This document shows positions 2,575 through 63,792 of a stretch of 64,000 bases of DNA, in pieces. The stretch lies in contig JANBVK010000001.1 of assembly GCA_024239035.1 (NCBI GenBank), positions 235,010 to 299,009 of the forward strand, given 5' to 3'. This stretch comes from Patescibacteria group bacterium. GTDB taxonomy: Bacteria; Patescibacteriota; Minisyncoccia; UBA6257; GWB1-50-10. The number at the start of each line of letters is the position of its first letter. The first letter of the stretch is position 1. The translations under genes and the position numbers were made by a program. The notes beneath the pieces were generated by a model, which saw only the letters and a program-made list of their open reading frames with translations, had not been told where the DNA came from and made no database searches.

Positions 2575-4100
<1,526 letters not shown>

Positions 4101-4461
4101 AAAAAATTGGGACAACTAAAAAAGTTTTCAATTCTGGTTCTCCGATTTCACAATATCGGAGGTATATTCATATTTTCAAGTAACATTCGGCTCAATCATA
4201 GTCAAAATAATACACCCACCTCACTCGACATGATCGACGTCTCAAGTGGGGTGGATGTACTAAACTCCAAAGTTCTCTCCAAATTTTACTATCTATGTAC
4301 TATCCATTGTTAGTTTCAGTATAGTGAGTCACCCGTGCTTGTCAATCCCCCACATAAGTACTTATTTTGTGGGGGGTCAACTCCCTAAAACCAAGGGTTT
4401 AGTTGAAAAATTCAGTCTCAGGTGCTAATATTCTTGCAATCTAAACTATGAAACCTAAACC

Positions 4462-4767: not shown

Positions 4768-5448
4768 ATGGAACTTAAAGTTAAAAACCGCATAATTCTT
4801 GGCAAAAAAGTAAAACACCTTCGCGACAAAGGTTTAATCCCTGCTGAACTCTTTGGTCACGGCGTAACGAACAAACACCTGGAGATTCCGGAGAAAGATC
4901 TTATAGATATTTATAAAAAAGCTGGCAGTCACACCATTATCCAGGTGATAACAGAGGAAGGAGAAAAAATACCAGCCCTGATTTCAGAGGTGCAACACCA
5001 TCCCTTATCAAGAAAGCCTCTTAATGTTGATCTCCACCAGATACGAATGGATGAAATTATTGAAACCGGAGTTCCAATTAAATTTAAAGGTGAAGCCCCT
5101 GTCGAGAAAAGTGGATTTTTTGTGATGAGGGTCTTAGATGAAATTGAAATTAAGGCACTGCCGGACAAGATTCCTCACTCTTTTGAAGTAGATCTGTCTA
5201 CTCTTAAAGAAGTTGGCCAGAGCATTAACGTAAACGACATTACTGTTCCTAAAGAAGTTAAAATATTAACTCCTGGAGAAACAGTTATCGCAACCGTAAC
5301 CGAACGCGAAAAAGAAGAAGAGGAAACTTCTTCCCCGGCCGCCGAGGCTACCGAGGTTACTGCTAAGACTACGCCCGAAACCACTGAAACGCCAAGTAAG
5401 CCTACTGAAGCGGAAAAGAAAAAAGAACCGGAGAAATCTAAAAAATAG
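4768..5448 (+). CDS. rplY: Ribosomal protein L25 / general stress protein Ctc, with acidic and Thr/Lys-rich C-terminal tail
   Basis: N-terminal region (LIPAELFGHG...HLEIPEKDL...) and central beta-barrel region are L25/Ctc-like; 226 aa. Confidence 0.75.
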   Translation: MELKVKNRIILGKKVKHLRDKGLIPAELFGHGVTNKHLEIPEKDLIDIYKKAGSHTIIQVITEEGEKIPALISEVQHHPLSRKPLNVDLHQIRMDEIIETGVPIKFKGEAPVEKSGFFVMRVLDEIEIKALPDKIPHSFEVDLSTLKEVGQSINVNDITVPKEVKILTPGETVIATVTEREKEEEETSSPAAEATEVTAKTTPETTETPSKPTEAEKKKEPEKSKK

Positions 5449-5490: not shown

Positions 5491-6948
5491 ATGAGAAGGA
5501 TGTTCGATATAGTTCCCAAACGCCCTAACCGCTTAAACTTCTCTTACTCCAAGCGGTTCTTTTTCCCCTTAAACGCTTTTATGAAAATCACGGTAGCCGT
5601 GCTGGTTCTTCTGCTTTTTACGGGTTCTGTGCAGGCACCGCAAGTAGCCTATTACACCCGCGCGGCCGAAAACGAGGATGGAGAAAACAATAAAACTACC
5701 CAAGAAGAACGGCTGGAACTGGAAAACAAACTCACTGAATTAGAACAGCAAATTGTTGAACACCAAAACACTATTGATGAATATAAGAGACAGGGTAAAA
5801 CTCTAAATAATGAAATCTACGCCCTGAATGCACAAATCGGTCAAATTAATCTCAAGATTAAAGCTATTGGCCTGAATCTTGAGAAACTTAACGTTGATAT
5901 AACCGACACGCAGGCGCAAATCAACCGAAGCGAAAACAAAATTGACAGCCACAAAGTCGCTCTTGGAAAAGGTGTCCGGGATCTCTACGAAGCTGACAAC
6001 GTTGGCCTCATTGAAATTCTCCTGGCTAACAACAGGCTCTCCGATTTCTTCGGCAACATCAATGATATTGCTCTCGTCCAAAATAACCTGCGAATAGACC
6101 TAACAGACATCATAAAACTTCGCCAGGAACTTCTCGAACAAAAACAAGAACTTGCGCTCGAAAAAGAAGATGTCGAAAATCTCAGGACTTACCGAGAATC
6201 CCAAAAACAGACAGTAGCTGTAACAAAGGGAAAGAAAGCAAATCTCCTGGACATAACAAAAGGTAAGGAATCCGAATATCAAAAACTACTCATAGAAACA
6301 AAGAAAACAGCAACTGAGATACGGGGCAGAATTTTTAAATTTCTCGGCGGCGGCGAGCTTACCTTTGAAGAAGCGTATGACTACGCACGCCTCGCAGAAG
6401 GCGCTACCGGCGTACGCGCGGCCTTAGTCCTTGCAATTCTTGACCGCGAATCACTCCTCGGCAAAAATGTAGGCCGCTGCGGTTATAAAACCGCCATGCA
6501 CCCAACGCGCGATATCCCCTATTTCCTCGATATGCTACGACGCTTGAATATTGACCCAGATTCAACCCTGGCAAAGGTATCCTGTCCCAATGCTCACGGT
6601 TCCTATGGTGGTGCTATGGGACCGGCACAATTCATCCCATCAACATGGGAGCTCTATGAAGATAGAGTCGCTAAAGTCACAGGAAACAACCCCGCAAACC
6701 CTTGGAATAATTCAGATGCGTTTGTCGCGACCGCGATCTACATTGAGGATCTTATCGGCTCATCAGGCTGCCAAAGTTACGGAGAAAAAAACAAACACAT
6801 CGTTCCGAAACAAACTCTTATTGAACGGTGCGCTGCTGCTAAGTACTATTCCGGGAAACGGTGGTATACCTACCGTTTCTGGTACGGCGAACCGGTGGTT
6901 ACAAAGGCAAACGAGTTTGAGGAAGATATTAAAATCTTAACTAGCTAG
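5491..6948 (+). CDS. Secreted coiled-coil protein with C-terminal MltB-like lytic transglycosylase domain; probable true start at 5581 (MKITVAVLVLLLF signal peptide)
   Basis: Signal peptide, then a long heptad-rich region (PcsB/EnvC-like coiled coil), then ...GSYGGAMGPAQFIPSTW..., which resembles the AGAMGPMQFMPATW motif of the MltB / Slt35 family. Confidence 0.65.
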   Translation: MRRMFDIVPKRPNRLNFSYSKRFFFPLNAFMKITVAVLVLLLFTGSVQAPQVAYYTRAAENEDGENNKTTQEERLELENKLTELEQQIVEHQNTIDEYKRQGKTLNNEIYALNAQIGQINLKIKAIGLNLEKLNVDITDTQAQINRSENKIDSHKVALGKGVRDLYEADNVGLIEILLANNRLSDFFGNINDIALVQNNLRIDLTDIIKLRQELLEQKQELALEKEDVENLRTYRESQKQTVAVTKGKKANLLDITKGKESEYQKLLIETKKTATEIRGRIFKFLGGGELTFEEAYDYARLAEGATGVRAALVLAILDRESLLGKNVGRCGYKTAMHPTRDIPYFLDMLRRLNIDPDSTLAKVSCPNAHGSYGGAMGPAQFIPSTWELYEDRVAKVTGNNPANPWNNSDAFVATAIYIEDLIGSSGCQSYGEKNKHIVPKQTLIERCAAAKYYSGKRWYTYRFWYGEPVVTKANEFEEDIKILTS

Positions 6949-6951
6949 CAG

Positions 6952-7707
6952 CTACCCGCCGCTTTTCCGAAACGCTTTCACAATCGGCTCCAAGTTACCT
7001 TCCAAAATTTTCTCAATATTTCCCCATTTCTTCTTGATTCGGTGATCGGTGATCCGGTCTTGGGGAAAGTTATAAGTGCGGATCTTTTCCGCTCGTTCCG
7101 CAGAGCCAATCTGTTCTCTTCGAAGTGAACTTATCTCTTCCACTCCCGCAGACTGCTGAGCTTCATAAAGCTTCGCGCGCAAAATATTCATTGCTTGTTC
7201 CCGGTTTGCGCTCTGTGAACGCCCGGCTTGAGAAGAAACAGTTACACCTGTCGGAATGTGGCGAATTCGCACTGCGGTCTCAACTTTGTTTACGTTCTGT
7301 CCGCCCGGACCGGAAGACCGAAAAAAAGAAACTTCCAACTCATCCGGCTTAACTTGCACTTCCTTTGGTTCAACTACGGGTAGTACGGCAACAGAGGCGG
7401 TTGAAGTATGAATCCGTCCCGACTTTTCGGTTTCGGGGATGCGTTGCACCCGATGAACTCCAGATTCATTTTTCAAAATCTCGTAGAGATTTTGTCCTGA
7501 GCCTGTCGAAGGATTACTTATCTCCGCAACAAACGTTTTATATCCCCTGACCGAACTGGCGCTAGAATCCAAAACGGTAAAGCGCCACTCGCGCTTCGCG
7601 GCGTACTTCTGATACATACGCGCCAAATCCCCGGCAAAAAGCGACGCCTCTTCACCTCCGGTTCCGGCACGGATTTCTAGGATTATTCTGTTTATATTCT
7701 GTTCCAT
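6952..7707 (-). CDS. prfA: Class I peptide chain release factor, RF1-like, lacking the N-terminal domain 1
   Basis: GGQ motif (SSGPGGQNVNK), a PxT-type codon-recognition tripeptide in context (RVQRIPETEKSGRIHTS) and a C-terminal RTYNFPQDRITDHR. It aligns to E. coli RF1 from about residue 110 onward. Only 251 aa. Confidence 0.85.
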   Translation of the reverse strand: MEQNINRIILEIRAGTGGEEASLFAGDLARMYQKYAAKREWRFTVLDSSASSVRGYKTFVAEISNPSTGSGQNLYEILKNESGVHRVQRIPETEKSGRIHTSTASVAVLPVVEPKEVQVKPDELEVSFFRSSGPGGQNVNKVETAVRIRHIPTGVTVSSQAGRSQSANREQAMNILRAKLYEAQQSAGVEEISSLRREQIGSAERAEKIRTYNFPQDRITDHRIKKKWGNIEKILEGNLEPIVKAFRKSGG

Positions 7708-7743
7708 AAAAGCAGTTTAAACATAAAGAAATTCTCAATTTAA

Positions 7744-7781
7744 GTTAACGGCTCAACGACACTCATCGTTGAGCCGTTAAC
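7744..7781 (-). terminator. Strong hairpin (15-bp perfect stem) downstream of fba; terminator-like
   Basis: GTTAACGGCTCAACG-acactcat-CGTTGAGCCGTTAAC, followed on the minus strand by an AU-rich stretch. Confidence 0.5.
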
Positions 7782-7795
7782 AAAGATCACGCTCA

Positions 7796-8677
7796 CTAAA
7801 GCTTATTAAACAACCTTAATCTGTTCTCTATCACTTTCTCCATCTTCTCAATAACTTCCGGCGTAAGTTTATAAGACGCTATTTCTTCTGGATTATTCTT
7901 GAGCGCTTCCTCAAAGCTTTTGCGCCAGGCGACACGCAATTCCGTAGAAATATGAATAATAGAAATTCCAGCATTAATTGCCGCGACAAAATCCTCATCA
8001 CTGACCCCCGATCCCCCATGCAAGACAAGCGGCACTTTCGCAGCGTCTTTAATCTCTCTAATGCGTTCTATCTGCAAGTTTGGGTTAGATGCGCCAGAGA
8101 GCATCCCATGAACGTTTCCCACCGCAGGCGCAAGCATGTCCACGCCGGTTTCCCTGACAAACTGCTCGGCCTGCTCGGGTGTAGGAAGATCTTCTAAACG
8201 AATCGCTGCGCCTTCTGGTAATTCTTTTAGGACTTTAGACGACTGACCGATATATCCCAATTCTCCCTCCACAACAATTTCGGGGTTGATTTTTTTCGCA
8301 ATCTGAACCGCCTTTTTCGTCTGTTGAACATTCTCCTCAAACGGTAATTTTCCTCCGTCAAATATAATTGAGTCATATCCAACCTCTGCTGCATCTTTAA
8401 CTTTATCTAATGAGTATGTATGATCTGCATTTAAAAAGAGCGTATACCCACTACCCTTAGCATGCTCTTTGTTATAGCTCGCAATCAAATCAACGCTGTG
8501 ATGAATGCCAAGAAATCCGCGTTCTCCTTCCGAGGTACCGATGATAACTGGTAACTGCAATCTCTCCGCCACGTGAGAGACAGCTTTCAACATCTCAAGA
8601 TTAGCAACATTAAAATGACCAACCGCTACTCTTTTCTTTTCCGCTTCTTTTATTATTTGGATTAAACTTTTTGTCAT
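7796..8677 (-). CDS. fba: Class II fructose/tagatose-bisphosphate aldolase
   Basis: VAVGHFNVANLE...HGGSG...family pattern of class II aldolases; 293 aa. Confidence 0.85.
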   Translation of the reverse strand: MTKSLIQIIKEAEKKRVAVGHFNVANLEMLKAVSHVAERLQLPVIIGTSEGERGFLGIHHSVDLIASYNKEHAKGSGYTLFLNADHTYSLDKVKDAAEVGYDSIIFDGGKLPFEENVQQTKKAVQIAKKINPEIVVEGELGYIGQSSKVLKELPEGAAIRLEDLPTPEQAEQFVRETGVDMLAPAVGNVHGMLSGASNPNLQIERIREIKDAAKVPLVLHGGSGVSDEDFVAAINAGISIIHISTELRVAWRKSFEEALKNNPEEIASYKLTPEVIEKMEKVIENRLRLFNKL

Positions 8678-23186: not shown

Positions 23187-23305
23187 CAGGACTCAAACCG
23201 ATCGGCTCGAAACCTGCTTAAACGAATCAATTATCCATTGTCCTCACTTTGTCCACATATGTGGACAAAGTGAGGACACAGCAGATCTGCTTGAAAATCA
23301 AATCA
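23187..23305. repeat. Composite repeat family R2/R3, copy A: a roughly 50-nt block (CAGGACTCAAACCGATCGGCTCGAAACCTGCTTAAACGAATCAAT), a 38-bp perfect palindrome GTCCTCACTTTGTCCACATATGTGGACAAAGTGAGGAC (23240-23277), and a conserved tail ACAGCAGATCTGCTTGAAAA
   Basis: Seen directly. The palindrome core TTGTCCACA / TGTGGACAA is a 1-mismatch DnaA-box-like 9-mer in inverted orientation. Confidence 0.85.
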
Positions 23306-26872: not shown

Positions 26873-27320
26873 CAGGACTCAAACCGATCGGCCTGAAACC
26901 TACTTAAACAAATCAATCACTGCTGATTCTAACTGTCCTCACTTTGTCCACATACGTGGATAAAGTGAGGACACGGTAGATCTGCCTGAAAACCGAAAAA
27001 TTAATTTAAAACTGTAACCGGGTGGCCGGTAAAGAGCGGAGTATTTACGACGTCGCCCAAATTGCACGGCTCGCCCACGTAGAGAGCAAATTCCACTTCC
27101 CTGCCCAATAAATCACTAGACACTGCAGTGCCGCTCAAAGAAGAAAAGTGCGTTTCGTACTGCCAGCTGCTTATTTTTTCTTAGCGAGGAACAAGCTTAG
27201 AAAAACAAGTATCCCGAGCGAGTCTCAAACGAATGTGAGAGACGACGAGGGACTACCAAATATTGATTCGGAAAGAAACTAACGAAAAATGAGCCAGTCG
27301 ATTGGCTTATTTTTCGGATT
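26873..27320. repeat. Composite repeat family R2/R3, copy B: the 50-nt block, a palindrome at 26935-26972 (GTCCTCACTTTGTCCACATACGTGGATAAAGTGAGGAC), a CCGGTAAAGAGCGGAGTATTTAC block, a roughly 225-nt insert, and a terminator-like block AACGAAAAATGAGCCAGTCGATTGGCTTATTTTTCGGATT (27279-27320)
   Basis: Shares the 50-nt block and tail with copy A, and shares the CCGGTAAA.AGCGGAG block and the terminator block with copy C. Confidence 0.85.
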
Positions 27321-29320: not shown

Positions 29321-29451
29321 TAAGGGGGTGTGTCTCATTTGTCTCATTTACCATATAACACCCCTGACCCGAGTGGGTTGATTCTCGTGCTATAATAGCT
29401 TCAAAGAACCCCCTAAACACCCCCATTAAAACAAATCACCTTTATTTTCAT

Positions 29452-29628
29452 GTCCTCAATATGTCCACGTATGTGGATAAATTGAGGACAAATGAAATCC
29501 GCTCTGATAATCAATGTCTCCTACTCAACAAATTATCAATTGGAAACGGTAACTGGGTAGCCGGTAAAAAGCGGAGAATTTACTGCAAACGAAAAATGAG
29601 CCAGTCAATTGGCTCATTTTTCGGATTG
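29452..29628. repeat. Composite repeat family R2/R3, copy C: palindrome GTCCTCAATATGTCCACGTATGTGGATAAATTGAGGAC (29452-29489), a CCGGTAAAAAGCGGAGAATTTAC block, and a terminator-like AACGAAAAATGAGCCAGTCAATTGGCTCATTTTTCGGATT (29586-29625)
   Basis: Direct comparison with copy B; the terminator hairpin TGAGCCagtcaattGGCTCA has an A-run and a T-run on either side, so it could terminate in both directions. Confidence 0.85.
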
Positions 29629-29964
29629 TGGTTTTATACGATAAACCACTCCTCTACCAATTTTGCCCACTTGTTCCACGCCACCTTCTTTTTCGAGCTC
29701 CTCCATATAGCGGGCAACAGACCTGCGAGAGATACCTAAAACCTCACGAATATCGGAATTGGTAAGTTCTGGCCGCTCTTTAAGGAGTTCAAGGATTCTC
29801 ACTTTGTTCTTATTCTTCCTAACAGTTCTGTCTAGTGCGATATTACAAATTCCCGCAAACTCTTTCGCGGTGGTTGTGTCATGCTTTTTTGCCTCACTAC
29901 AAGACAACCAGAACAGGATAAACAAAAGGGCAACAAAGAGAAAAAGAAAGATTAATAAATTCAT
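29614..29964 (-). CDS. Membrane-anchored winged-helix (HTH) transcriptional regulator
   Basis: N-terminal TM (LLIFLFLFVALLFILFWL), then a C-terminal HTH (LTNSDIREVLGISRRSVARYMEELEKEG). Confidence 0.6.
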   Translation of the reverse strand: MNLLIFLFLFVALLFILFWLSCSEAKKHDTTTAKEFAGICNIALDRTVRKNKNKVRILELLKERPELTNSDIREVLGISRRSVARYMEELEKEGGVEQVGKIGRGVVYRIKPQSEK

Positions 29965-30014
29965 GCTTTAAATTTATACCTGCTTTAGCTATCGTGTCAG
30001 ATCCTGCCGAGGTT

Positions 30015-30512
30015 TTAAATTTTCTTAAAAAGTTCGGTATCCATTATTCTCCACCACATCATTTCCTCGCTTACTTTGTATCTCTGAGCCAGTGATTTCA
30101 CATCTTTAATTCCTTCTGCAAAATCTCTTTTCAAAAAATCAATTGGCACTAAAAGCTCTGCCGCAAATTTGTTTACGGCTGTTTCTTCGGGATTCTTAGA
30201 ATTGAAATCATCACCATTATTTCGCAAATCGGCATGTCCCAATATCAGATGCCCTAATTCGTGTGCAATTGTAAATCGTTGACGATGTGGGTGATGATCT
30301 CGATTGTATGCAATTACATGTTTTTTGTTTTTGCTAATATGCGCGCCGGAAACCTTATTGATAAAAGAATGCGACACGAGTTCAATTATAATCTTTCGCT
30401 TCCTGCTAATATGTTGAATAACTTCTTTAATACCAATAGGAGGGTTATTTATTTGTAGTTCACTGATAATTCGACGCGCTAATTTTTGTGGGAATTGTAT
30501 TTTACTTTTCAT
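30015..30512 (-). CDS. ImmA/IrrE-family (COG2856, DUF955) zinc metallopeptidase
   Basis: HEXXH motif in context: FTIAHELGHLILGH. 165 aa; the start overlaps the methyltransferase stop by 4 nt. Confidence 0.75.
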   Translation of the reverse strand: MKSKIQFPQKLARRIISELQINNPPIGIKEVIQHISRKRKIIIELVSHSFINKVSGAHISKNKKHVIAYNRDHHPHRQRFTIAHELGHLILGHADLRNNGDDFNSKNPEETAVNKFAAELLVPIDFLKRDFAEGIKDVKSLAQRYKVSEEMMWWRIMDTELFKKI

Positions 30513-31864
30513 AATTTCTTTTTAAGTATATCGATTGAATATTGAAGTTTTCGCTCTTCTTCTACTGTCAACCCCTGTTCAGACCTAAAAGCGACCTTAA
30601 CTACTGGATCATTTCTTTTAACAACGGTTCCTCCGTAACTTAATGGGAACCTTCTATCTATCAATTTTGGCTCAATCGCTTGATTGAGCACTTGTTTTAT
30701 TTCAAAAACATTTGCACGAGAACTTTTCTTTGTCGAATCAATTATAATAACAAACTCCGTATTGTGTCCTCTATCCTCTACGTTGACCCCAGAATATCTT
30801 TGTGAACTTACTCTATATCGTTTATATTTCTTAAGCACTATGTCGAGGTATCCTTTATCAGCAAACATATCTAACAGCGTATTGAAATTTACCAAACCAT
30901 CCGTGGAGTAACTTATTAAAATAAATCTGGCTTTTAATTTACTGATTAATTCTCTAAATGCTTCTGTGGCCGTATCTCGATAGCAATAGAAGCTCTTTCT
31001 CTCGGTTCGCCAATCCAATCTGATAGCCGATTTGTTGACCGTTTTGCCATTGACCAAAATCTCTTTGTTAATTTTTGGTTTATCCCAGAGGTCAATAGTG
31101 CTCAAAAGATGGTAATTTGAACCATATTGATGTTGATTATATGGAGGGTCTATATAAGCAATATCGCACTTAATATTAGAAGCCAACTCATTTGCGTCCT
31201 CTTTATATACGTTATTTTCTTTACCGTTATTGTGAAAAAGTGGCGGCTCAATCGTTAATCGACTTCTGATTCTATAGAGAGCAGTGCTCGTTGATCCACC
31301 CCACCCCCGATGATAGGCCTTGAAAACACCTGAGGTATTACTGCAGTAAGCTCCTTGAAAAATTAGTGGCGCTAACAAAACTCGCATCTCACTTTCATTG
31401 ATAGTTCCATCCTCTCTCCACTCTCGTATCTTTTCTCTGATCGCATCAATTCGTCGACCGTTCTCTTGCGTATAGAACATACGTTCTTTATCAGGGTTAG
31501 GATTTTCATCATTTGCTGGGCAATAGTACGTAGCAATATAGCCTTTGATTGGTTTGAGATTATTCAAAATACCAAACGCCTTCTGCATTCCGCCTAATTT
31601 TCTAAATGTTGGCGGGCGGTTTCGTTTAATATAGGTATGGTTGATCGTATAAGAATACGGCTCCCAATCATTACTAATGACTTGGTAGCCAAAAACTTTG
31701 GCTAATCTTGATATCACACCGCTACCTGCGAATACATCAAAAAACACGCCGGAGTTCACGCCAGTTTTGCGAACCGCTTGTTCAATAAGAGGCACTAACC
31801 GCCTTTTGTTCCCTATATAGGGTATGAGCTGATTATATGTAAAACTATCTTGATTGCGCGGCAT
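30509..31864 (-). CDS. N6-adenine DNA methyltransferase (Dam-like D12 class) of a type II restriction-modification system
   Basis: IPYIGNKRRL (Dam KWAGGK-equivalent region), FAGSGVIS (FxGxG SAM-binding motif) and catalytic DPPY. Confidence 0.8.
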   Translation of the reverse strand: MPRNQDSFTYNQLIPYIGNKRRLVPLIEQAVRKTGVNSGVFFDVFAGSGVISRLAKVFGYQVISNDWEPYSYTINHTYIKRNRPPTFRKLGGMQKAFGILNNLKPIKGYIATYYCPANDENPNPDKERMFYTQENGRRIDAIREKIREWREDGTINESEMRVLLAPLIFQGAYCSNTSGVFKAYHRGWGGSTSTALYRIRSRLTIEPPLFHNNGKENNVYKEDANELASNIKCDIAYIDPPYNQHQYGSNYHLLSTIDLWDKPKINKEILVNGKTVNKSAIRLDWRTERKSFYCYRDTATEAFRELISKLKARFILISYSTDGLVNFNTLLDMFADKGYLDIVLKKYKRYRVSSQRYSGVNVEDRGHNTEFVIIIDSTKKSSRANVFEIKQVLNQAIEPKLIDRRFPLSYGGTVVKRNDPVVKVAFRSEQGLTVEEERKLQYSIDILKKKL

Positions 31865-31865
31865 A

Positions 31866-33383
31866 TTATCTTTGAGTTTGGGTATCCCTTATGAGGTTAT
31901 GCCAAAGTTTCTCTACATTAATGATCGGAATTTTGATCTTTTTCTTAGTAGTATAGATGTCATTCGGATAATTGCTGATCCATGCAGCTACAAATCTTGA
32001 TCGGGTAATATCGTCTTTCGGAGACTCGTGCGCACTAAACTCGAATGCATCATATTCTGCCTCAATTTCAAATAGTCGACCTTTATAACTATCAACATTT
32101 TGAATGATATCATGACGGATCGAAAATAAGTCCATTAAATCCAAAGATTTAAGTGATTTATTAAACCTTTCAGCAGGAACGAGGTCATCTAAATAAATAC
32201 AAAGGAGATCTGGATAGGCCGTATCCACCCGCACCACGAGAATTATCTTTTCTTCTTTGTCTTGTTTAACCTTAAGAGCTTTAGCTAAGCTTAGATTTTC
32301 TATATAGGAAATAACATTTACTTCTTGGTTTGCCTCTTTATACTTTTTAATAAGTTTAATTTTGTCCTCGAACGTACTTGTAATTTGGGCATGTAGCTGT
32401 TCTCTATATTTTTTGAGACGAGCGTTTTGAAATGGCGCGGTGTATGGAGCTTTACTAATGTCCTCAATTTTATTTAACTTGTGATATTCCGCGAGCGGGA
32501 GTATTGGTTGGCCTGTTTTGAAATATAACCATTCCTCACCGTTTTTAGGCTTAATAAAAAAGTAAAAGATATTAGCGGCGTCAGGTTCTAATTTTTTAAA
32601 CACTAAATTATCGAGGACTCGAAACGGGATAGTGTAAAAATCTTTATATTCCAAATCATCTGTTAATATTTTGAAAACAAAATTCGGGCAGTTTTGATGG
32701 TAGATAAAACTTTTTGGTATCGAGTAATAAATCCTCGGATGAGATTTAAGTATCTCCTCATAAGGTATCGTCGGATACGGAATATAAATATGTTCGCGCT
32801 TGTTGGTTTCAAAACAAGCCTTCCGTTGCTCAAAAAAATATTGAGACACTTTCCTGCCGCTGTTTGATATCTCTTGGATCACTGCACGCTTCGGCCACTT
32901 TTTATCATAATCTCGCAATTTAAATTCTTGAGTTTTGCGATCCAAGAAAACCTGTAACGCTTTCTCTACTTCTTGTTTGAATGCTTCAAACTTTTTATTG
33001 CTGACTTTCGTGATGTTTGTAAATTGAGGTTCAACATCACCGTCCGATCGAACCCTAAAAAGCAGGATACCATCTTTTATTGGTCTAAATAAAATCTCAG
33101 GTAACCTGTAGTAGTAATCATCAGAACCTCTAACAAGACCTATCGCATTGAGAACCATTGAAATGTTGCCGGGGAGCCCCCGTAAAAATGAGCGAATCTT
33201 TTTTTCTGGTACTGACCTACCAATACCCATCATCATTCCGATATAAGCAGGGTTGTCGCGAAAAAACTTTAGAATGTCATTAGTTGAAAATCGATTTGCT
33301 TTCAGCTTGCCATGTTGGACAAAAATGAGAAACTTTAATGGGACGCGGTCTTTTTTAATAACCATGGTTTGGGGATTATCCAC
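31866..33383 (-). CDS. Putative cognate restriction endonuclease (505 aa hypothetical), 1 nt upstream of the methyltransferase gene
   Basis: Position and tight coupling to the methyltransferase; no conserved motif expected or seen. Confidence 0.45.
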   Translation of the reverse strand: MDNPQTMVIKKDRVPLKFLIFVQHGKLKANRFSTNDILKFFRDNPAYIGMMMGIGRSVPEKKIRSFLRGLPGNISMVLNAIGLVRGSDDYYYRLPEILFRPIKDGILLFRVRSDGDVEPQFTNITKVSNKKFEAFKQEVEKALQVFLDRKTQEFKLRDYDKKWPKRAVIQEISNSGRKVSQYFFEQRKACFETNKREHIYIPYPTIPYEEILKSHPRIYYSIPKSFIYHQNCPNFVFKILTDDLEYKDFYTIPFRVLDNLVFKKLEPDAANIFYFFIKPKNGEEWLYFKTGQPILPLAEYHKLNKIEDISKAPYTAPFQNARLKKYREQLHAQITSTFEDKIKLIKKYKEANQEVNVISYIENLSLAKALKVKQDKEEKIILVVRVDTAYPDLLCIYLDDLVPAERFNKSLKSLDLMDLFSIRHDIIQNVDSYKGRLFEIEAEYDAFEFSAHESPKDDITRSRFVAAWISNYPNDIYTTKKKIKIPIINVEKLWHNLIRDTQTQR

Positions 33384-33708: not shown

Positions 33709-33797
33709 CCCCGTACAATTACACCGCTCGCGCTATCCGAGCGCAAAAGACACGAAGTGGCGGTGTAATTATACGGGATCAAGACAAATCTTCCATC

Positions 33798-33892
33798 GTC
33801 TTCACTTTGTCCACATATGTGGATAAACTGAAGACATGTTCCGTAAATTGAGTTGTCCTCACTTTATCCACATATGTGGGGCTTTTGAAGAC
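33798..33892. repeat. Two tandem palindromes of family R3 (33798-33835 GTCTTCACTTTGTCCACATATGTGGATAAACTGAAGAC; 33855-33892 GTCCTCACTTTATCCACATATGTGGGGCTTTTGAAGAC) in the divergent promoter region of the PaaX-like regulator gene
   Basis: Each contains perfect TTATCCACA / TGTGGATAA DnaA-box 9-mers. Confidence 0.85.
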
Positions 33893-40381: not shown

Positions 40382-40930
40382 ATGCAACAAAAATTCAACC
40401 TTAAGCAGATTAAATTAGTTATCGGTCTCGGTAACCCCGGCAAAAAATATGAGGGCACGTACCATAACATCGGCTTTTTGTTCGTAGATTATCTAACAAA
40501 TCCGCCGGCTGGCGGACCAATTTCTAAGCCGCTCAAATCGAGCGTACACATGAACGAGTCAGGAAAATTTGTGCGAGCATCGATGAAAAAACGTGGGGTA
40601 AAACCCAAGGAATTGCTGATTGTCCACGACGATTCCGATATAATACTTGGGTCTTACAGATTCTCCTATCGTCGCGGTTCAGCGGGACACAAAGGGGTGG
40701 AATCAATTGTCCGGGTTCTCAAAACGAAAAATTTTTCCCGTCTCCGCATCGGCATCCGACCCAAAAAAGCGGGTCTGCCCGCCGGCTTGCCCGCCAAAGC
40801 TTTAGCATCGGCAGGAGCCCGGAGGGCGAAGGCGGGAGAGTTGGTGTTAAAAAAAATAACCCCAAGCCATAGAAAAACATTAGAAGAGGTATTTAAGAAA
40901 ATAGAGAAAGACTGCTTCTCCTTTACCTAA
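40382..40930 (+). CDS. pth: Peptidyl-tRNA hydrolase (start at internal ATG 40382; the ORF track starts at 40244, inside lepB)
   Basis: KLVIGLGNPGKKYEGTYHNIGF N-terminal signature; HDDSDI; RIGI. Confidence 0.8.
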   Translation: MQQKFNLKQIKLVIGLGNPGKKYEGTYHNIGFLFVDYLTNPPAGGPISKPLKSSVHMNESGKFVRASMKKRGVKPKELLIVHDDSDIILGSYRFSYRRGSAGHKGVESIVRVLKTKNFSRLRIGIRPKKAGLPAGLPAKALASAGARRAKAGELVLKKITPSHRKTLEEVFKKIEKDCFSFT

Positions 40931-42416
40931 TCCGAAAACTTACATTAAAACCTACAGAACCGTCTTTCGAAACTGTAATCCCTGCAAGGGGTAAATCAAC
41001 GTTGAAAAAATCGGATTCATCTACTAATACATTTTTAAACTTTATCACCTGGGAATTACTGGGTGCGCGGCCAACAAGGCTCACAGGTTCGGTGCTGGCC
41101 CCAACGCTAAGCCTACCCAAAGTAATATTATTCCCGTCCGCCAACTGCTTGATCCGGCTAAAAATCTGATGCCAAGGTCGGGATTCACGTCTTGCTTTTT
41201 CCACCGCCCCAACTAAGTTATTAAACTCGTCTACTTTTTGCCCAAGTTGAACTAACTCAGTTTGAGAAATCTGGGCTTTAAAAACATTTAACCTATCAGT
41301 TAAAATATTTGACTGCTTTACTAAAAATACGGCTGACATCCCGAAAGCCCCCAAAAAAACCAACATCGCCCCAATAACAACACCTCTCCACATCCTTATA
41401 AAATTTAGAGCACGTTCCTGATAGAACGTCTCGACTAAGCTCTCGCCGCTTAAATTAACCTGAGTGTCTCGACCACCATGCAATTTTCCCCTCATTGCTG
41501 ATCCTAAAACTGCGTACCAGCCGGGTGCAAGCGGATAAGATTTAACAGAAAGCATTGTTGCTTTTAATTTGAAATGGTTTTGAAGTAATTGCCCAATATC
41601 TCCTTCAAAACCAGGTGCAATGATAAGTACTTGGCTTACATTTTCTTTAAACCGCTTAAGAGAAAAATCAATAACTCTTCTTACCTCTTGGATTACTACT
41701 TCCTCGAAAGCCGCCTTGGAAATCTCATGACTTTCTCCTTGAACCGACTGCCAAGAACGGAAATATTGAAAATAGAGCGATCCTTTTTTTAGAATAGAAA
41801 GGTCTAGGCCATCACTTGAAATTTGGAGAACAATCACCGGTTCCAGAGATAAATTAACAGAACTGCTTATCACCCTCGCCAAGGCTAGGGCCGGAAACTC
41901 AAAAATTAGACCATCAAAGTTAGCCGCTGCCAATAAACTTTTTAGTTTATCTACAACATCCTTGGATACAAAAGCACCTAACAGGTCATACCGGTCCTCC
42001 GTATCACCGATTACCTGCCAACTCATATGAGCATCTCCAACGTCAATCGGAGATATTATTTGAAGGTTAAGTTGAGCGGACTCTTCAAGTTTTTCTTGGT
42101 CAATTTTGGGGACATTAAAACTTTGAGTGTAAATAACGGCGGGTGGAAGAGAAACAATAACCTGCAATTTACGATTATCATCATTGGAAGAAATCATTTT
42201 GTGAAGCTGGCGCAGAAGACTCAAAAGCTGATCGGGAGCTTCAATTTTTCCTCCCTTAACTACTCCCGGCGGCAAACGCAGAGAAAAAGAGACAGGTTTT
42301 CCTTTCTCCAAAAGAACGTACTGGATAACTGAGTCACTAATCTGAAGCCCTCCTGTTTTTGGCTTTGAGCCTAACTTATCAAAAAAGTAAGCAAGACTTT
42401 CAAATATTCTTCTCAT
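40923..42416 (-). CDS. Type IV pilus assembly PilM-PilN fusion protein (actin-like cytoplasmic domain, a TM helix, then a periplasmic domain)
   Basis: 497 aa; N-terminal 340 aa is PilM/FtsA-like; central TM (VVIGAMLVFLGAFGMSAVFLV); C-terminal about 130 aa is PilN-like. Confidence 0.6.
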   Translation of the reverse strand: MRRIFESLAYFFDKLGSKPKTGGLQISDSVIQYVLLEKGKPVSFSLRLPPGVVKGGKIEAPDQLLSLLRQLHKMISSNDDNRKLQVIVSLPPAVIYTQSFNVPKIDQEKLEESAQLNLQIISPIDVGDAHMSWQVIGDTEDRYDLLGAFVSKDVVDKLKSLLAAANFDGLIFEFPALALARVISSSVNLSLEPVIVLQISSDGLDLSILKKGSLYFQYFRSWQSVQGESHEISKAAFEEVVIQEVRRVIDFSLKRFKENVSQVLIIAPGFEGDIGQLLQNHFKLKATMLSVKSYPLAPGWYAVLGSAMRGKLHGGRDTQVNLSGESLVETFYQERALNFIRMWRGVVIGAMLVFLGAFGMSAVFLVKQSNILTDRLNVFKAQISQTELVQLGQKVDEFNNLVGAVEKARRESRPWHQIFSRIKQLADGNNITLGRLSVGASTEPVSLVGRAPSNSQVIKFKNVLVDESDFFNVDLPLAGITVSKDGSVGFNVSFRIR

Positions 42417-42426
42417 AGTTTACAAA

Positions 42427-42897
42427 TTAAGTTACCGGTTCCTCACTAAGCGACTGAAGTTGGACATAACCCGTGGTCTGGTTAACCACCAAGATTGCAA
42501 CTAGTTTCCTCTGCCTACTGCCGGCTGTTGCTGTGGAACTTATTGTATAAATATAGATATTTAAAGCGTTATCAACGGTCCTCATTGCGGAAACCGAGGT
42601 ATTATCATCACCTACAGTTAGATTATAGTTTTGAGGAGTAGAGCCGAATTCTTTGTCCCTTGTAATTTTAATCATTGCATCGCGAATGCCTGAATGGGCT
42701 GCCGCCGAGGCTCTCAAAGACAATCGCTCTCCTAAACCGGCTGTGCCCAAAAAATAAGTTACGAAAGAACCGGCAATGGTAATCTCAATGATAATGCCGC
42801 TTATAAGAAGAATAAACGGAAGAGCAATCTGCCCTCGCGCGGAGTTATATCCCATGTCACTATAATACCAAAATGTACATCCTTGTGTCATGCACAC
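42427..42897 (-). CDS. Membrane-anchored protein in the pilus operon (PilO-like or non-canonical minor pilin)
   Basis: N-terminal TM (IALPFILLISGIIIEITIAGSF) with Glu in the helix; directly downstream of pilMN. Confidence 0.4.
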   Translation of the reverse strand: MCMTQGCTFWYYSDMGYNSARGQIALPFILLISGIIIEITIAGSFVTYFLGTAGLGERLSLRASAAAHSGIRDAMIKITRDKEFGSTPQNYNLTVGDDNTSVSAMRTVDNALNIYIYTISSTATAGSRQRKLVAILVVNQTTGYVQLQSLSEEPVT

Positions 42898-42972
42898 TTA
42901 ACCAAACTAAAAACTCCCCATATATGGGGAGTTTTTAGTTGTTGGAAAACTGTTTGTGGCTCATTCAGATTA

Positions 42973-43422
42973 CTATTGTCCTTCTGGTACTTCCTGTGGC
43001 GCAGCGGGTGCGGCGGGGGCAGGAGCTGACGGCGGACCAACTGCTCCTCCTTGAGCTTGAGGCAAAAGATCCGGATTTGCTCTAATCACTTGGGCCAGCT
43101 GTCCTTGGGGATTAAGTTTAGTAATCCAAATAACCTCTTCACGATTAAGTTTTATCCGGTCCTCCGGCCCCCAAAAAATATTCGTAAACTTCTGAATGCT
43201 AACAGGGTTCTGTTGGTTTTGTGGATTAACTTGCAGGAGATATACGTTCTTCAAACCGAGGGATGGAAAACGAGTAAGCTGTCCGAAATAAAGGTCGCCG
43301 GTCCGCAAAAGAACCGCGTAGTAAGGCTGGCTTCCTAAAACCGTTTTCCAAACAACTACTCCAACCAGAACTATTAACAGCAACACGACCAGCACCAAAA
43401 GAATTTTATTTGTCCTGCTCAC
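42973..43422 (-). CDS. Membrane-anchored hypothetical protein with Pro/Ala-rich C-terminus
   Basis: N-terminal TM, 149 aa, C-terminal PSAPAPAAPAAPQ low-complexity tail. Confidence 0.45.
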   Translation of the reverse strand: MSRTNKILLVLVVLLLIVLVGVVVWKTVLGSQPYYAVLLRTGDLYFGQLTRFPSLGLKNVYLLQVNPQNQQNPVSIQKFTNIFWGPEDRIKLNREEVIWITKLNPQGQLAQVIRANPDLLPQAQGGAVGPPSAPAPAAPAAPQEVPEGQ

Positions 43423-43524
43423 AATATGTAATAATATAACATACTCTGCCTTTTTTGAAATTCCTGCCTGTGGATAACAAGAGGGCCCCGACGTCTATAC
43501 GAACGTCGAGGCCCTTACTACAGG

Positions 43525-44706
43525 TTACCTCTTATTGTGGAACCGTTTTGTGACAGGATCAATGTACCCTATCAAACTGCCGTCAACCTTGACGGCTACC
43601 TGACCGTTTACGATGAAACCTCCACTTGCGCCGGCGGGTGCCGTAACGACAAACCTTCGCGCATCCTCTGCTACCCCCTCGCCGACAGCCAAGGTGGAGA
43701 CAAGCCAGTTACCAACACTGCCAAATTCAGCCTCGAGCTCGAAGTCAATTCTCTCGCCAGCAGCGTAAGCCCTACCGAGGTAATCGTCAACGACGAAGGC
43801 GATTGAGACGCAGGGATTTTGTCCCTCTACACATTCCGGCCACGCCGCTGTGAAAATAGCATATCGCAGAGCGTTGTCGGCGTCACCCCAGAACGAAGCT
43901 TTAAAGGTGTGGGTACCGTCAACGGTGCTACTTTGGACTTCCGCCCCGGATCCATCGGTAATGCTAAGCTCCGTATGGACAAGATTATCGGCTGACGGGC
44001 TGGCAGTCACGAACATCCAAACAGGACCTTCCGTCTCACCAGCATCGTTTACGGCCGTCACCTGCCAGTAATGGGGGGTCGAGAAAGCGAGTCCCACCAC
44101 ACTCAGGGTTGTATCCTGAGTAGTGCCACACACGCTCAAGTTGTCTTCCGCAGTACCTCGGCAGACTCGGTAGAGCTCTGCTCCATTAGTCGTGAACCAC
44201 TTAAAAGTGGTGTTTGTTAACACGACTGTGCCTGCTGTCGGCGAGACATAAACCGGTGCCGCAGGCGGCATAAGAGCGGGCACGGTTGTAAATGACCACA
44301 TATCTCCCCAAACGGTAGTATCGGGTGCAACAGCTCCCACCTGCCACGGGATGGTGGTGCCATGAGGAAGATCAAGGAGCGCAAGACTGGTTTCCCGGGT
44401 CTCTACGCTATCCATTTGGTCTGGACGAGAACCCACTAGAACGATGTACCAATCAGCTCCTTTAGCCTCAGACCACTCGAGTTCAATATTCACCGGAACA
44501 TCATCTGCACCGTTTAACGGAGACAGATATTGAGGTTTTTCAGGTACTACAGTTCCCGGTCCAGTCCCGTCGCTGCAGGAGAGGGCAGCGAAAACTGCGA
44601 CCGCAAGCGAGATGCGCATATAGATTTTCACAACTCCCTCCGTACGCTTAGGGTTAATAAATAAACGATCTATAGTCCTTATACTATAAAAGACATCCTT
44701 TGTCAA
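43525..44706 (-). CDS. GC-rich secreted lipoprotein with Ig/FN3-like beta-sandwich repeats; probable start at MRISLAVAVFAALSC (lipobox)
   Basis: Lipobox ALSC, repeated ...W.V.AVN..GET..P.W.F...-type segments; GC well above the window average. Confidence 0.5.
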   Translation of the reverse strand: MTKDVFYSIRTIDRLFINPKRTEGVVKIYMRISLAVAVFAALSCSDGTGPGTVVPEKPQYLSPLNGADDVPVNIELEWSEAKGADWYIVLVGSRPDQMDSVETRETSLALLDLPHGTTIPWQVGAVAPDTTVWGDMWSFTTVPALMPPAAPVYVSPTAGTVVLTNTTFKWFTTNGAELYRVCRGTAEDNLSVCGTTQDTTLSVVGLAFSTPHYWQVTAVNDAGETEGPVWMFVTASPSADNLVHTELSITDGSGAEVQSSTVDGTHTFKASFWGDADNALRYAIFTAAWPECVEGQNPCVSIAFVVDDYLGRAYAAGERIDFELEAEFGSVGNWLVSTLAVGEGVAEDARRFVVTAPAGASGGFIVNGQVAVKVDGSLIGYIDPVTKRFHNKR

Positions 44707-44766
44707 TAAAATGAAAAGGCGCCCACTGCTGCGAGCGCCTTTACTAACTTGAATCCCCCATCGGAA

Positions 44767-45957
44767 TCACTGCGACTCAAGGGTATTCGTAAAGCTTGCG
44801 AAATCGTAACTTACGAACCCCAAGTGCCACGTTCCGTCGCCGGCCAGAGTTGAGAACCAGACTCTCAAGACACCACCGTTCCCGTACACAAAAGATGCCC
44901 TGTAGAGCGACCGCGATGCCCAATCGGCGAAACCCTTCTCTAGAAAAGGTGTCGCGTACGTCTCCCAGACAACGCCGTCAGCACTCCTCGCGAAAAACAA
45001 GTCATTGTCTCCGCAACCAGACCCCGACGGATAGGCAGCATAGATTGCCCAGTACTCCCTTGAAGAGGGAATATAGACAACGTCAATGTGCCATATAACG
45101 TAGCCGGGTTGGTCAAACGCCGTAACCACCGGCTCCGACCAATTAGCTCCCGAGAGTCCCGAACCAAGACCACCCAAGCCGCTCGCCGACCTCATCTTGA
45201 CTTCCGTAGAGGTAGCTCGGCATCCCGACGACCCCGAGTCAACGTACCAAATCTTAGGATAGAGTCCGTCAACAAGAACTAAAGACCTGCTCGCTGCTTG
45301 AGAAACGGCGCTGTGATTCGGTTCCTGAAACGCGATCTGTTCCGAATGCCAATCAATCCCGTCCTCCGAAACCCGCGTTTTGATAACGTTGTTTCCGTCT
45401 CTCACCTCTCGCCAGGTAAGAACGAGACGATCCCTAAAAGAATCGTAGAGTAAGTCCGGGTCGGAGTTGTGAAGAGCGCCCGGCTCGAGAGGAGCAACAG
45501 GGTTCGTTATCCCTTCGGGCTCAAGCCACGTCATCCCATCCTGACTCACTACAATCGAGGGATTTTCAAGTCTGGCGTTCCCATTCGGGTAGGGTGTAAT
45601 CGCCATCCAGTAGTTCCATCCATTCCACCCTAGAGAAAAATGCAGAATGTCGGGATGAACGGTTTGACCCGACCCATCGTACGTCGGTACACTGAGCTCC
45701 GTCGGTTCACCAAGAACCGAAACGGTGAGTTCCATCGGTCCCGTAAGCGGCCCAGGCAGCTCCACCGTGGATGGAGCATGACTGTCCGTGCAGCCGAGAA
45801 GCACACCAACAAGCAACACTATCGATCTATTCATGGTTACATCTCCATGCGCTGAAGTGAATTTGCTAAAGCCAATATAACAGAATCGCGAGTATTTGTC
45901 AAAAGAGCTCAAGAGAGCCGGAGTGAGATTACCACGTCTCTGCCGATTCAACGACAC
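44767..45957 (-). CDS. GC-rich predicted lipoprotein (396 aa), possibly a glycoside-hydrolase-like beta-propeller
   Basis: LLGC lipobox; Trp- and Asp-rich repeats; no confident family. Confidence 0.45.
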   Translation of the reverse strand: MSLNRQRRGNLTPALLSSFDKYSRFCYIGFSKFTSAHGDVTMNRSIVLLVGVLLGCTDSHAPSTVELPGPLTGPMELTVSVLGEPTELSVPTYDGSGQTVHPDILHFSLGWNGWNYWMAITPYPNGNARLENPSIVVSQDGMTWLEPEGITNPVAPLEPGALHNSDPDLLYDSFRDRLVLTWREVRDGNNVIKTRVSEDGIDWHSEQIAFQEPNHSAVSQAASRSLVLVDGLYPKIWYVDSGSSGCRATSTEVKMRSASGLGGLGSGLSGANWSEPVVTAFDQPGYVIWHIDVVYIPSSREYWAIYAAYPSGSGCGDNDLFFARSADGVVWETYATPFLEKGFADWASRSLYRASFVYGNGGVLRVWFSTLAGDGTWHLGFVSYDFASFTNTLESQ

Positions 45958-47165
45958 TGCTGGGTCCTTGTTACCCAGTTACAACCGTAAGCCTGCCAAG
46001 GACAGCCATCAATCATACAATCGCCGGGGTTTGTGTAATAGGTAGCTGATGACCCACACCCAGGAGCTGATCCGCTCCAACCCGTACCGCCTACTCCAAG
46101 CGGAAAACATTCCCCGTTCCCGTTCGGAAAATGTTGGAAAGCTAAAGCGTCTTCTATAAGAGTTGCGAAGAACTTACTATCCTCCTTCCGTGCTTCCGAT
46201 GAGCAATTCTCACACCTTCCACCGGTCTGGGTGTACCTTTTCGTCTGAGAACCGTCGCAATTATAATCAAACGAACCGTCGCCCCGGTGGGTTGTGAAAT
46301 AAGACGACTGCCCCGGTTTTGCATTTGAATTGCTGTCATAGCAATCCGTAGTGTAAGAAGTTAAGACACTTCGACGGCGGCGACCACTTGCTGAACCCGT
46401 ATATTGGGTGGAATTTGCCGGATAGCCGTCACTATCAGAATCAGCCATATAAAGATACGCTTCTCTAAGCTGGCCACTACTTCCAATAACAATTGACCCG
46501 CTGTTAATGGAGACTGAACGCCCCGGGTTCCGTGCGAAAGCAGCATTTAACGTAAGAGTATACGTTTGTATAGTCACGTTTCCATTATCAACTCCGTCTG
46601 TTGAGGAAATAGTGCAATTGGCCGTCGTGGTCCAATTTCCGGAAATAGGAATTCCACATGCGTCCGACCACGCAATGGTTATTGAGTTTTCTCTGTCGGC
46701 TGCGTCTCTCGCAACAAATATGGTGTGGTAAAACGTGTCGTGGGTATCTTTGACCTGCCATTCTCCTTCCCAAGTTTCTTCTCCTGTCATCTCAAGCGGG
46801 ACCGTTGTTGTTCCGTTGTCGGTTTCAATGTTGGCAATAACCGAGTTTATCCCTGCCGGTGATTGAACTACAATTCTGAACTTCTGGATATCACCGACAT
46901 GCACGTCAGGCGGGTCAACGACTCCTTCAAGGAACTTTGGCTGCGCATTTTCGGCGGAGATCACCTGGAATACATACTCTCCTTCAGGTAACGGTCCCCA
47001 TTTTTCTCCTTTCTCATTCACGAATTTCCTATCACTTTGCAAGGCCTGCTCATCAGAGCTGGCTTGTTCCTTATTCCTCTGCGGTTCGTAAAATTGAACA
47101 AGCACACCAATACCTACCACAATCAAAACTGCAAGAATAATTAAAATATTTTTCCTCGTAATCAA
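45948..47165 (-). CDS. GC-rich secreted, Cys-rich protein (405 aa)
   Basis: N-terminal TM/signal, many Cys pairs in the C-terminal third (CENCSS...CDGS...CGSS...CMIDGC). Confidence 0.45.
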   Translation of the reverse strand: MITRKNILIILAVLIVVGIGVLVQFYEPQRNKEQASSDEQALQSDRKFVNEKGEKWGPLPEGEYVFQVISAENAQPKFLEGVVDPPDVHVGDIQKFRIVVQSPAGINSVIANIETDNGTTTVPLEMTGEETWEGEWQVKDTHDTFYHTIFVARDAADRENSITIAWSDACGIPISGNWTTTANCTISSTDGVDNGNVTIQTYTLTLNAAFARNPGRSVSINSGSIVIGSSGQLREAYLYMADSDSDGYPANSTQYTGSASGRRRRSVLTSYTTDCYDSNSNAKPGQSSYFTTHRGDGSFDYNCDGSQTKRYTQTGGRCENCSSEARKEDSKFFATLIEDALAFQHFPNGNGECFPLGVGGTGWSGSAPGCGSSATYYTNPGDCMIDGCPWQAYGCNWVTRTQQCR

Positions 47166-47184
47166 GCCTTTGTCCTTATTAATA

Positions 47185-47565
47185 TTACTGGTATAAATCG
47201 TGAAGAATGCGGCAGGGTTCCACGATACGCGGGTTTGTAATTTTATAGTAGACGTTTAGTCCTTCACGTCGCGTCTTAACGAGTTTATTGTGACGAAGTA
47301 CTGCAAGGTGCTGAGAAACATTTGCCTTTTTAAGCTTGAGTATCCCGACAAGTTTTTCAACAGGGAGTTCACGCTTACTCAAAATATTCAAAATCTCAAG
47401 GCGCTTTGAATTTGCCATAATCTTATAGATCTCGGCGTTACGGAGGTAGGTTGCTTTTGGAAATGGCGATTTCATAGTTTCGAAACTATGCAATAAGTAT
47501 ATAATAATACGGGCATCCTTCAAGGGGGAGTTATCCACGTCCAACTCGGTGGGAATTATAGACAC
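47185..47565 (-). CDS. ArsR/SmtB-family HTH transcriptional regulator
   Basis: LEILNILSK...EKLVGILKLKKANVSQHLAVLRHNKLV is the ArsR winged-helix signature. Confidence 0.75.
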   Translation of the reverse strand: MSIIPTELDVDNSPLKDARIIIYLLHSFETMKSPFPKATYLRNAEIYKIMANSKRLEILNILSKRELPVEKLVGILKLKKANVSQHLAVLRHNKLVKTRREGLNVYYKITNPRIVEPCRILHDLYQ

Positions 47566-47585
47566 ACCAGGTTCATAATTGACAG

Positions 47586-48098: not shown

Positions 48099-48117
48099 CT
48101 GATTTCTTTCTTGGTCT

Positions 48118-49371: not shown

Positions 49372-49380
49372 CGAGATGTT

Positions 49381-50469: not shown

Positions 50470-50478
50470 GTTTCTATT

Positions 50479-58425: not shown

Positions 58426-58428
58426 AAA

Positions 58429-61196: not shown

Positions 61197-61233
61197 AAAT
61201 TAAGCAGTTCGTCAAAGTATAATAATCACAACA

Positions 61234-62724: not shown

Positions 62725-62749
62725 AATAAAGATATGATATAATTATGCT

Positions 62750-63214: not shown

Positions 63215-63244
63215 AAGAAAGGTCGTTGTGCTATAATAAGACAT

Positions 63245-63739: not shown

Positions 63740-63752
63740 GAAAATTGCTCGA

Positions 63753-63792
63753 TATAAAAACCACCCCGACATCACGTCGAGGTGGTTTTTTA
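63753..63792 (+). terminator. Rho-independent terminator ending the plus-strand locus
   Basis: CCACCCCGACatcacGTCGAGGTGG followed by TTTTTT. Confidence 0.7.

Follow-up and report, generated by a model that had tools for sequence, protein, structure and literature searches.

The window analysed here, a stretch of DNA of 64 kb in total, has a gene content typical of CPR bacteria, with genes for type IV pili, numerous genes that lack a Pfam family and a lone 16S rRNA gene. The gene under study, prfA (Table 1), runs on the minus strand from an ATG start codon at 7705-7707 to a TAG stop codon at 6952-6954, and its translation contains RIPETEKSGRIHTS. Its product carries the NCBI name 'MAG: PCRF domain-containing protein [Patescibacteria group bacterium]', and an identical protein is encoded on the ENA scaffold ZHAO22-1_SAMN11268109_METAG-scaffold_1 (729,382 bp), where the window lies at about 254.7-318.7 kb and accounts for 9% of the scaffold. 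The stop codons of prfA and of the convergent SLT_2 gene are only 3 nt apart, and on the other side the fbaA gene occupies the space that any N-terminal release factor (RF) exon would need. The GTGGEE helix tip near the start of the protein is presumably the reader of stop-codon U1, as in published RF1-ribosome structures.

Table 1. Features of the prfA locus and positions of the palindrome sites in the window.
Feature	Position	Strand	Evidence or remark
rplY (bL25/TL5), conserved prfA neighbourhood	4768..5448	+	Pfam; bL31 next in relatives
SLT_2 lytic transglycosylase, 485 aa, convergent, downstream of prfA	5491..6948	+	ORF, Pfam
prfA without domain 1, 251-aa RF1 with domains 2, 3 and 4 only	6952..7707	-	ORF, Pfam, NCBIfam, PDB, AlphaFold model
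GGQ peptidyl-tRNA hydrolysis motif, residues 135-137, context GPGGQNVNK	7297..7305	-	Translation; invariant
PET, the PxT 'tripeptide anticodon' of RF1, residues 91-93	7429..7437	-	Translation; P91 and T93 invariant, x variable
GTGGEE helix tip, residues 15-20	7648..7665	-	Translation; G15, G17, G18 and E20 invariant in 123 members
fbaA-prfA intergenic region, 88 nt	7708..7795	-	In-frame TAA 3 codons before ATG closes the frame
Hairpin between fbaA stop and prfA start, perfect 17-bp stem, 4-nt loop	7744..7781	-	Inverted repeat I8
fbaA, class II fructose-bisphosphate aldolase, complete, 293 aa, upstream, same strand	7796..8677	-	PF01116
Palindrome sites	23239-23278, 26934-26973, 29451-29490, 33797-33836, 33854-33892

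The 93-nt stretch that holds the hairpin upstream of prfA folds at -32.8 kcal/mol (z = -5.9 versus shuffles). An initial annotation of this DNA had described an 88-nt intergenic region with a strong terminator hairpin; the hairpin was borne out, and the word 'terminator' is interpretation only, with no U-tract directly after the stem and no call by the terminator scan at this place. The hairpin may be a terminator or an RNA-stability element. Just past it, a 10-codon upstream ORF (7708-7737, minus strand; ATG TTT AAA CTG CTT TTA TGG AAC AGA ATA TAA) overlaps the prfA start codon in another frame and may well be due to chance.

Several further features of the window were recorded. A 40-bp palindrome, composed of TGTCCTCACTTTGTCCACAT joined to its own reverse complement, occurs at five intergenic sites within 11 kb, with nine matches to the half-site at no more than 3 mismatches versus none expected; it flanks ROK/glycosidase genes, a gene for a 573-aa unknown protein and the HTH/M78/methyltransferase genes, and it looks like an operator or a REP-like element. 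The latter genes stand in a row at 29614-33383 on the minus strand (HTH regulator, M78 peptidase, D12-class N6-adenine methyltransferase and a 505-aa unknown protein), which, flanked as they are by the palindrome, may form a mobile or defence island. The complete 16S rRNA gene (2576-4103, minus strand; Rfam 1425 bits) stands alone, with no 23S rRNA, 5S rRNA or tRNA gene in the 64-kb window, so the rRNA genes are unlinked. Long gene runs without a Pfam family or with weak Cupredoxin_1 matches, including several proteins of 400-500 aa, extend over 40923-53122 and from 56388 to 64000 (continuing to position 20495 of the adjoining sequence L377), and a protein of 1805 aa is encoded just beyond the window.

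The prfA product begins at the boundary between domains 1 and 2 of RF1. Pfam PCRF (PF03462, 2.7e-40) was matched only over its C-terminal half (profile positions 99-194 of 194), after which comes a complete RF-1 domain (PF00472, 6.9e-39), and the NCBIfam RF1 models were aligned from profile position 104 or 110 onwards (104-339 and 110-347). In sequence alignments with PDB entries, residues 8-244 corresponded approximately to residues 111-342 of E. coli RF1 and to chain residues 86-318 of T. maritima RF1 (residue 8 being equivalent to about 86-88). By these PDB and NCBIfam alignments the 251-aa ORF starts at about residue 104 of E. coli RF1, some 7 residues ahead of the first strand of domain 2 and close to the position of about 110 given in the initial annotation. 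The N-terminal helical domain 1 of RF1, of about 100 aa, is missing.

Domain 1 was then sought elsewhere with HMMs built from 72 RF1 and 95 RF2 N-termini. Neither the RF1 nor the RF2 domain-1 HMM gave a match (E > 1) when run on the six-frame ORFs of the window, its flanks (about 3 kb on the left, 10 kb on the right) and six loci of the truncated clade, so the separate domain-1 ORF considered in the initial annotation was found in none of these regions. As positive controls, full or partial domain 1 was detected in other CPR RF1s by the RF1 HMM at 1e-32 to 4e-4. A hidden N-terminal exon or a frameshift is impossible, as had been stated before, because fbaA ends 88 nt upstream and an in-frame stop codon (TAA) lies three codons upstream of the start. 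Pfam, NCBIfam and the domain-1 HMMs agree with the first description of a class I RF in which the GGQ and codon-recognition domains are intact and domain 1 is absent.

The comparison with the RF1, RF2, PrfH and ArfB families identified the protein as RF1-type by both NCBIfam and PDB scores, and here the first reading held only in part. The two NCBIfam RF1 models (TIGR00019 and NF001859) scored 351 and 340 bits and missed their equivalog cutoffs of 400 and 423, because the alignment starts at profile position 104 or 110 and the N-terminus is missing. The PDB ranking was RF1 > mtRF1a > RF2, the best matches being RF1 of T. maritima (3e-75), S. mutans, T. thermophilus and E. coli. RF2 scored 229 bits (cutoff 370), and the protein has PET and GTGGEEASLF, not SPF or GGTE.QDW. 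PrfH scored 79 bits (cutoff 166.65), and the neighbours of the gene are fbaA, SLT_2 and bL25, with no RtcB. For ArfB/ICT1, the score was 53 bits (cutoff 100), the match was restricted to residues 115-149, and the PCRF half is present. The earlier statement that the protein resembles truncated RF homologs is therefore not upheld, as 351 bits for RF1 versus 79 for PrfH and 53 for ArfB point to an RF1 orthologue and not to those paralogues.

Apart from domain 1 and, as its consequence, the curated score cutoff, the RF1 characters examined were all found, namely the PCRF and RF-1 domains, PxT, the GxxE tip, the Q/HTST pocket, GGQ and the fold of domains 2-4. An alignment of 123 members contained 56 invariant columns, among them every known stop-codon-reading residue and GGQ (G15, G17, G18, E20, G83, H85, R86, Q88, R89, P91, T93, H100-T103 and G135-Q137), and the GPGGQNVN context was present in 119 of the 120 nearest homologues. 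The AlphaFold model, made with the family alignment, had a mean pLDDT of 81. The top Foldseek match was T. thermophilus RF1 on the 70S ribosome (TM 0.90, rmsd 1.8 A over 248 columns), and superposition of the model on ribosome-bound RF1 of T. thermophilus and E. coli gave TM 0.90 and rmsd 1.8-1.9 A over about 248 columns, whereas free, closed crystal forms of RF1 fitted poorly (TM of about 0.57-0.60). The protein is thus predicted to fold like ribosome-bound RF1.

The initial annotation had also regarded PET as a deviation from the usual P(A/V)T. The middle residue proved variable in the clade, with PKT the commonest form among the 120 nearest homologues (56), ahead of PET (28), PDT (8) and PAT (8), then N, T, Q, I, V or S in the middle. 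Both PET and GPGGQNVN were considered as marks of altered specificity or chemistry and rejected, since x is variable and a P before GGQ is common in ordinary RF1s. PET as such carries no message.

The truncation is lineage-wide and not specific to the genome of the window, a point overlooked in the initial annotation. The best 120 homologues were all of 238-275 aa (median 245) with 68-89% identity, and those with names included Jorgensenbacteria, Wolfebacteria, Paceibacterota and Minisyncoccia. In a library clustered at 50% identity, the truncated family was represented by three or four sequences of 232-269 aa and by a form of 332 aa whose domain 2 contains an insertion; the matches ranking below these were full-length RF1s with at most 58% identity. 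Some other sequences were examined as permuted or fused RF1 and discarded: P0146, P0150, P0155, P0160, P0161, P0206 and P0216, in which an N-terminal RF1 core precedes a long C-terminal tail, are fragments with low-complexity read-through tails, and P0121 and P0122 are assembly duplications. In all four genomes compared (the window and loci L378-L380), prfA starts at the domain boundary, while the gene upstream varies: fbaA in the window, rpmE abutting the start in L378 and divergent genes in L379 and L380. Such a constant start behind a variable upstream gene speaks against a gene split that has been conserved. Downstream, SLT_2/bL25(/bL31) are kept beside the truncated prfA in three of the four.

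Outside CPR, all 69 RF1s among the matches listed from species-representative genomes were full length, their domain 2 being preceded by about 97-115 aa (or by as many as about 150 aa with a few of the called starts); the RF1 of a record labelled Rickettsia typhi was likewise full length, with domain 1 present. The RF1-family search of the same genomes yielded at least 11 CPR loci, in which the length before domain 2 ranged from 0 aa (L005, Patescibacteria, protein of 241 aa), about 5 aa (L006, labelled Saccharibacteria) and 6 aa (L008, Patescibacteria, 246 aa) through 46 aa (L049, labelled Nomurabacteria), 57 aa (L010, Microgenomates), about 77 aa (L047, labelled Saccharibacteria) and about 75-91 aa (L017, uncultured bacterium) to 108 aa in both Moranbacteria (L009) and another Patescibacteria locus (L015). 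In a rough NJ tree without support values, the main truncated clade was sister to CPR RF1s in which domain 1 is short or full, a further two, smaller groups of truncated RF1s branched apart, and all of them nested among full-length RF1s. The separate branching of these groups in the rough tree makes more than one loss possible. Judged from these sequences, the loss of domain 1 appears to be a derived state that is graded across CPR. A natural domain-1-less RF1 in CPR was not found in the literature on release factors and CPR that we covered, which is incomplete, and curators may know of it; none is described in a paper on CPR ribosomes (PMC9297842).

UGA is a working stop codon in this genome, as the initial annotation had supposed. 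The 61 long ORFs of the window end with TAA (27), TAG (17) or TGA (17), and in five places TGA overlaps the start codon of another gene on the same strand (ATGA/GTGA). The genome must therefore have an RF2 activity, and an RF2 is to be expected elsewhere in it. A tblastn search with the RF1 family found no second RF-like locus in the 64-kb window, and the 10 kb to its right contained no RF. No RF2 was seen in the window with its flanks (about 3 kb on the left, 10 kb on the right), nor in the surroundings of prfA (up to 10 kb away) in three relatives. The statement that only this RF is present thus holds within the window and does not extend to the genome, since the window is 9% of the scaffold and the use of UGA argues for RF2. 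RF2 was also searched for with the DNA pattern for V-R-x-S-P-F-D-x4-R-H-T-S-F, which gave 25 viral and 120 metagenome loci. None of these could be assigned to CPR by neighbour genes or by GGQ context, and in every complete RF2 ORF among them the frame stays open for 102 codons or more ahead of domain 2.

According to the annotation table in the supplement of PMC10936435, the Paceibacteria MAG PMX_810_sub has an expressed prfB of 969 nt (322 aa) with PCRF and RF-1 domains (K02836), whose best match is a Nealsonbacteria RF2. RF2 thus exists in the class and, at least there, is not cut to domains 2-4. The same supplement lists PMX_810_sub_00862, a gene of 333 nt annotated as 'peptide chain release factor 1' with the RF-1 (GGQ) domain only, which is more suggestive of an ArfB-type factor or of a fragment. 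Annotation of release factors in CPR is unreliable in both directions.

Considering the above results, it is likely that the protein is the housekeeping RF1, i.e. the prfA orthologue, of a Paceibacteria/Parcubacteria-type CPR bacterium, from which the N-terminal domain 1 has been deleted in the lineage. An artefact, whether through a wrongly called start, a truncation during assembly or decay to a pseudogene, has next to no probability as the origin of the short gene, even though metagenome assemblies do yield truncated or duplicated RF ORFs, such as P0121 and P0122 with their internal duplications and several fragment representatives. The identical protein is present on an independent Logan assembly from the same sample, hundreds of independent contigs (NCBI, JGI, ENA and Logan) share the architecture and the start position, and the ORF is intact with invariant catalytic and decoding residues, by which this explanation is effectively refuted already. 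Alternatively, domain 1 might be supplied in trans, either by a stand-alone helical protein from a split gene or by an unrelated protein that makes the L11-stalk contact. Many genes of the window have no Pfam match, and since no RF domain is less conserved than domain 1, a separate copy could have diverged too far to be detected. We nevertheless consider such a partner very unlikely, as the RF1 and RF2 domain-1 HMMs stayed at E > 1 in the window, its flanks and the six loci of the truncated clade, the upstream neighbour of prfA differs among genomes, and the intermediate CPR forms keep stumps of 46-77 aa attached, a pattern that fits stepwise erosion and not gene fission.

The score below the RF1 equivalog cutoffs, the unseen 91% of the scaffold and the accessory nature of the other natural domain-1-less RF homologues (PrfH and ArfB) would also suit an accessory paralogue, that is, a rescue or specialised RF beside a full-length RF1 encoded elsewhere in the genome. 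Against this stand an RF1 score far above that for PrfH or ArfB, the invariance of all RF1 stop-codon determinants, a neighbourhood that is ribosomal (bL25 and bL31, with rpmE abutting prfA in one relative) and contains no adjoining RtcB, and the truncated form of the whole clade at 68-89% identity; besides, two RF1 genes would hardly be kept in a genome of 0.73 Mb. A paralogue is accordingly a very unlikely explanation. It is highly improbable that the truncated RF1 is the sole class I RF and reads UGA besides UAA and UAG. The use of TGA as a stop and the lack of an RF2 in the window, in its flanks of about 3 kb and 10 kb and within 10 kb of prfA in three relatives agree with this idea, but the decoding pocket is that of canonical RF1 (P-x-T-E, Q88 and H100-T103 invariant) with no known omnipotence-type change apparent, a Paceibacteria MAG has the expressed 969-nt prfB, and a missing RF2 in 13% of one genome is uninformative. 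If true, it would represent a minimal, omnipotent bacterial termination system, working on a CPR ribosome that has given up the domain 1/L11-stalk/RF3 route.

For the housekeeping RF1 without domain 1, ordinary UAA/UAG-dependent peptide release is the most likely function, because the decoding and catalytic residues are intact. The truncated RF1 would enter the ribosomal A site at UAA and UAG, where its GxxE helix tip, PxT loop and Q/T pocket would read these codons, and GGQ would then be placed in the peptidyl-transferase centre, with hydrolysis of the peptidyl-tRNA. It would make no contact with the L11 stalk and would leave the ribosome spontaneously, without recycling by RF3, while UGA, a gene end here, would be read by an RF2 encoded outside the window. 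Domain 1 has been described as a GTPase-interacting domain (Burroughs and Aravind). According to the summary of Mora et al. (2003) in PMC1586002, RFs deprived of domain 1 still release peptides in vitro with their codon specificity unchanged, and the truncated RF1 works in vivo, with only RF3 stimulation lost. RF3 is absent in 72 of 191 genomes, including Bacillus, Mycobacterium, Mycoplasma, Chlamydia and Rickettsia (Margus et al., 2007; PMC1780047). Loss of RF3 alone cannot be the cause of domain-1 loss, because RF3 is absent from so many genomes and the RF3-less Rickettsia sampled here keeps a full-length RF1. No RF2, RF3 or PrmC was found within 10 kb of RF1 at any of the at least 11 CPR loci.

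Domain 1 of RF1 and RF2 is regarded as non-essential and yet is almost universally kept, and here a large natural lineage has deleted it completely. An essential translation factor has cleanly lost a near-universal domain by natural deletion in a major bacterial radiation, and intermediates are present. This loss offers a natural experiment on the roles of domain 1 beyond RF3 recycling, for example in initial docking to the L11 stalk or in the control of dissociation, and on the differences in CPR ribosomes or growth regimes that permit its loss. Since curated RF1 models under-call truncated RF1s, which at NCBI go under the name 'PCRF domain-containing protein', statements on CPR completeness and on a 'missing prfA' can be wrong. 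For in vitro studies, the truncated protein also provides an RF1 that is compact and has been optimised by nature.

Among known factors, PrfH/RFH resembles the protein in being without domain 1 and in keeping a codon-recognition-like domain and GGQ, but its decoding loop is altered and it serves as an accessory factor whose gene shares an operon with RtcB, whereas the present protein has RF1-type decoding residues and no RtcB nearby. ArfB (YaeJ)/ICT1 has the GGQ domain in common with it, and the context SGPGGQNVNKV is typical of ArfB/ICT1; ArfB has no codon-recognition domain and a C-terminal basic tail, whereas domains 2 and 4 are complete here and the tail is absent. A start at domain 2 and a PxT motif are likewise found in RF1-like proteins of IMG/VR, which recall the phage RF1 of TGA-recoded phages (Borges et al., bioRxiv 10.1101/2021.08.26.457843); these are of a different clade, with 33-42% identity to the present protein. 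Dozens of the 80 loci kept from 241 relatives (L302-L376, e.g. L309:3983-4654 and L335:10001-10663) encode such a domain-1-less protein of about 225-235 aa, with a PPT motif in both of those translated. In most of the viral ORFs the frame is interrupted by a stop codon after about 40 codons. In the two translated, this stop occupies the codon position of the family's invariant Trp41, and in one it was read as TGA; this suggests phages reading TGA as Trp, or UGA-dependent gene control. Three further IMG/VR loci (L085, L098 and L108) carry an RF2-like ORF of about 197 aa with SPF and domains 2 and 4, from which the GGQ domain 3 is excised (...PDIDDCCDIPHVPKSNPPIRSYVLHPY...), and which would be a codon-reading, non-hydrolysing RF2 derivative.

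Canonical RF1 (T. maritima 1RQ0/2FVO, T. thermophilus 4V63 and E. coli) shares with the protein domains 2-4, the PxT loop, the GxxE tip, GGQ and the switch-loop region, with 43-48% identity in structural alignments, and differs by its first 85-110 residues, i.e. domain 1 with its L11-stalk/RF3 interaction, which are absent here. The engineered N-truncated RF1 and RF2 of E. coli (Mora et al., 2003, as summarised in PMC1586002) consist, like the protein of the window, of domains 2-4 only. Those are laboratory deletions that were studied in an RF3-containing host and gave slow growth, whereas the form described here occurs naturally and is fixed in a large lineage. The closest functional analogue of this RF1 is the laboratory N-terminal deletion of E. 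coli RF1.
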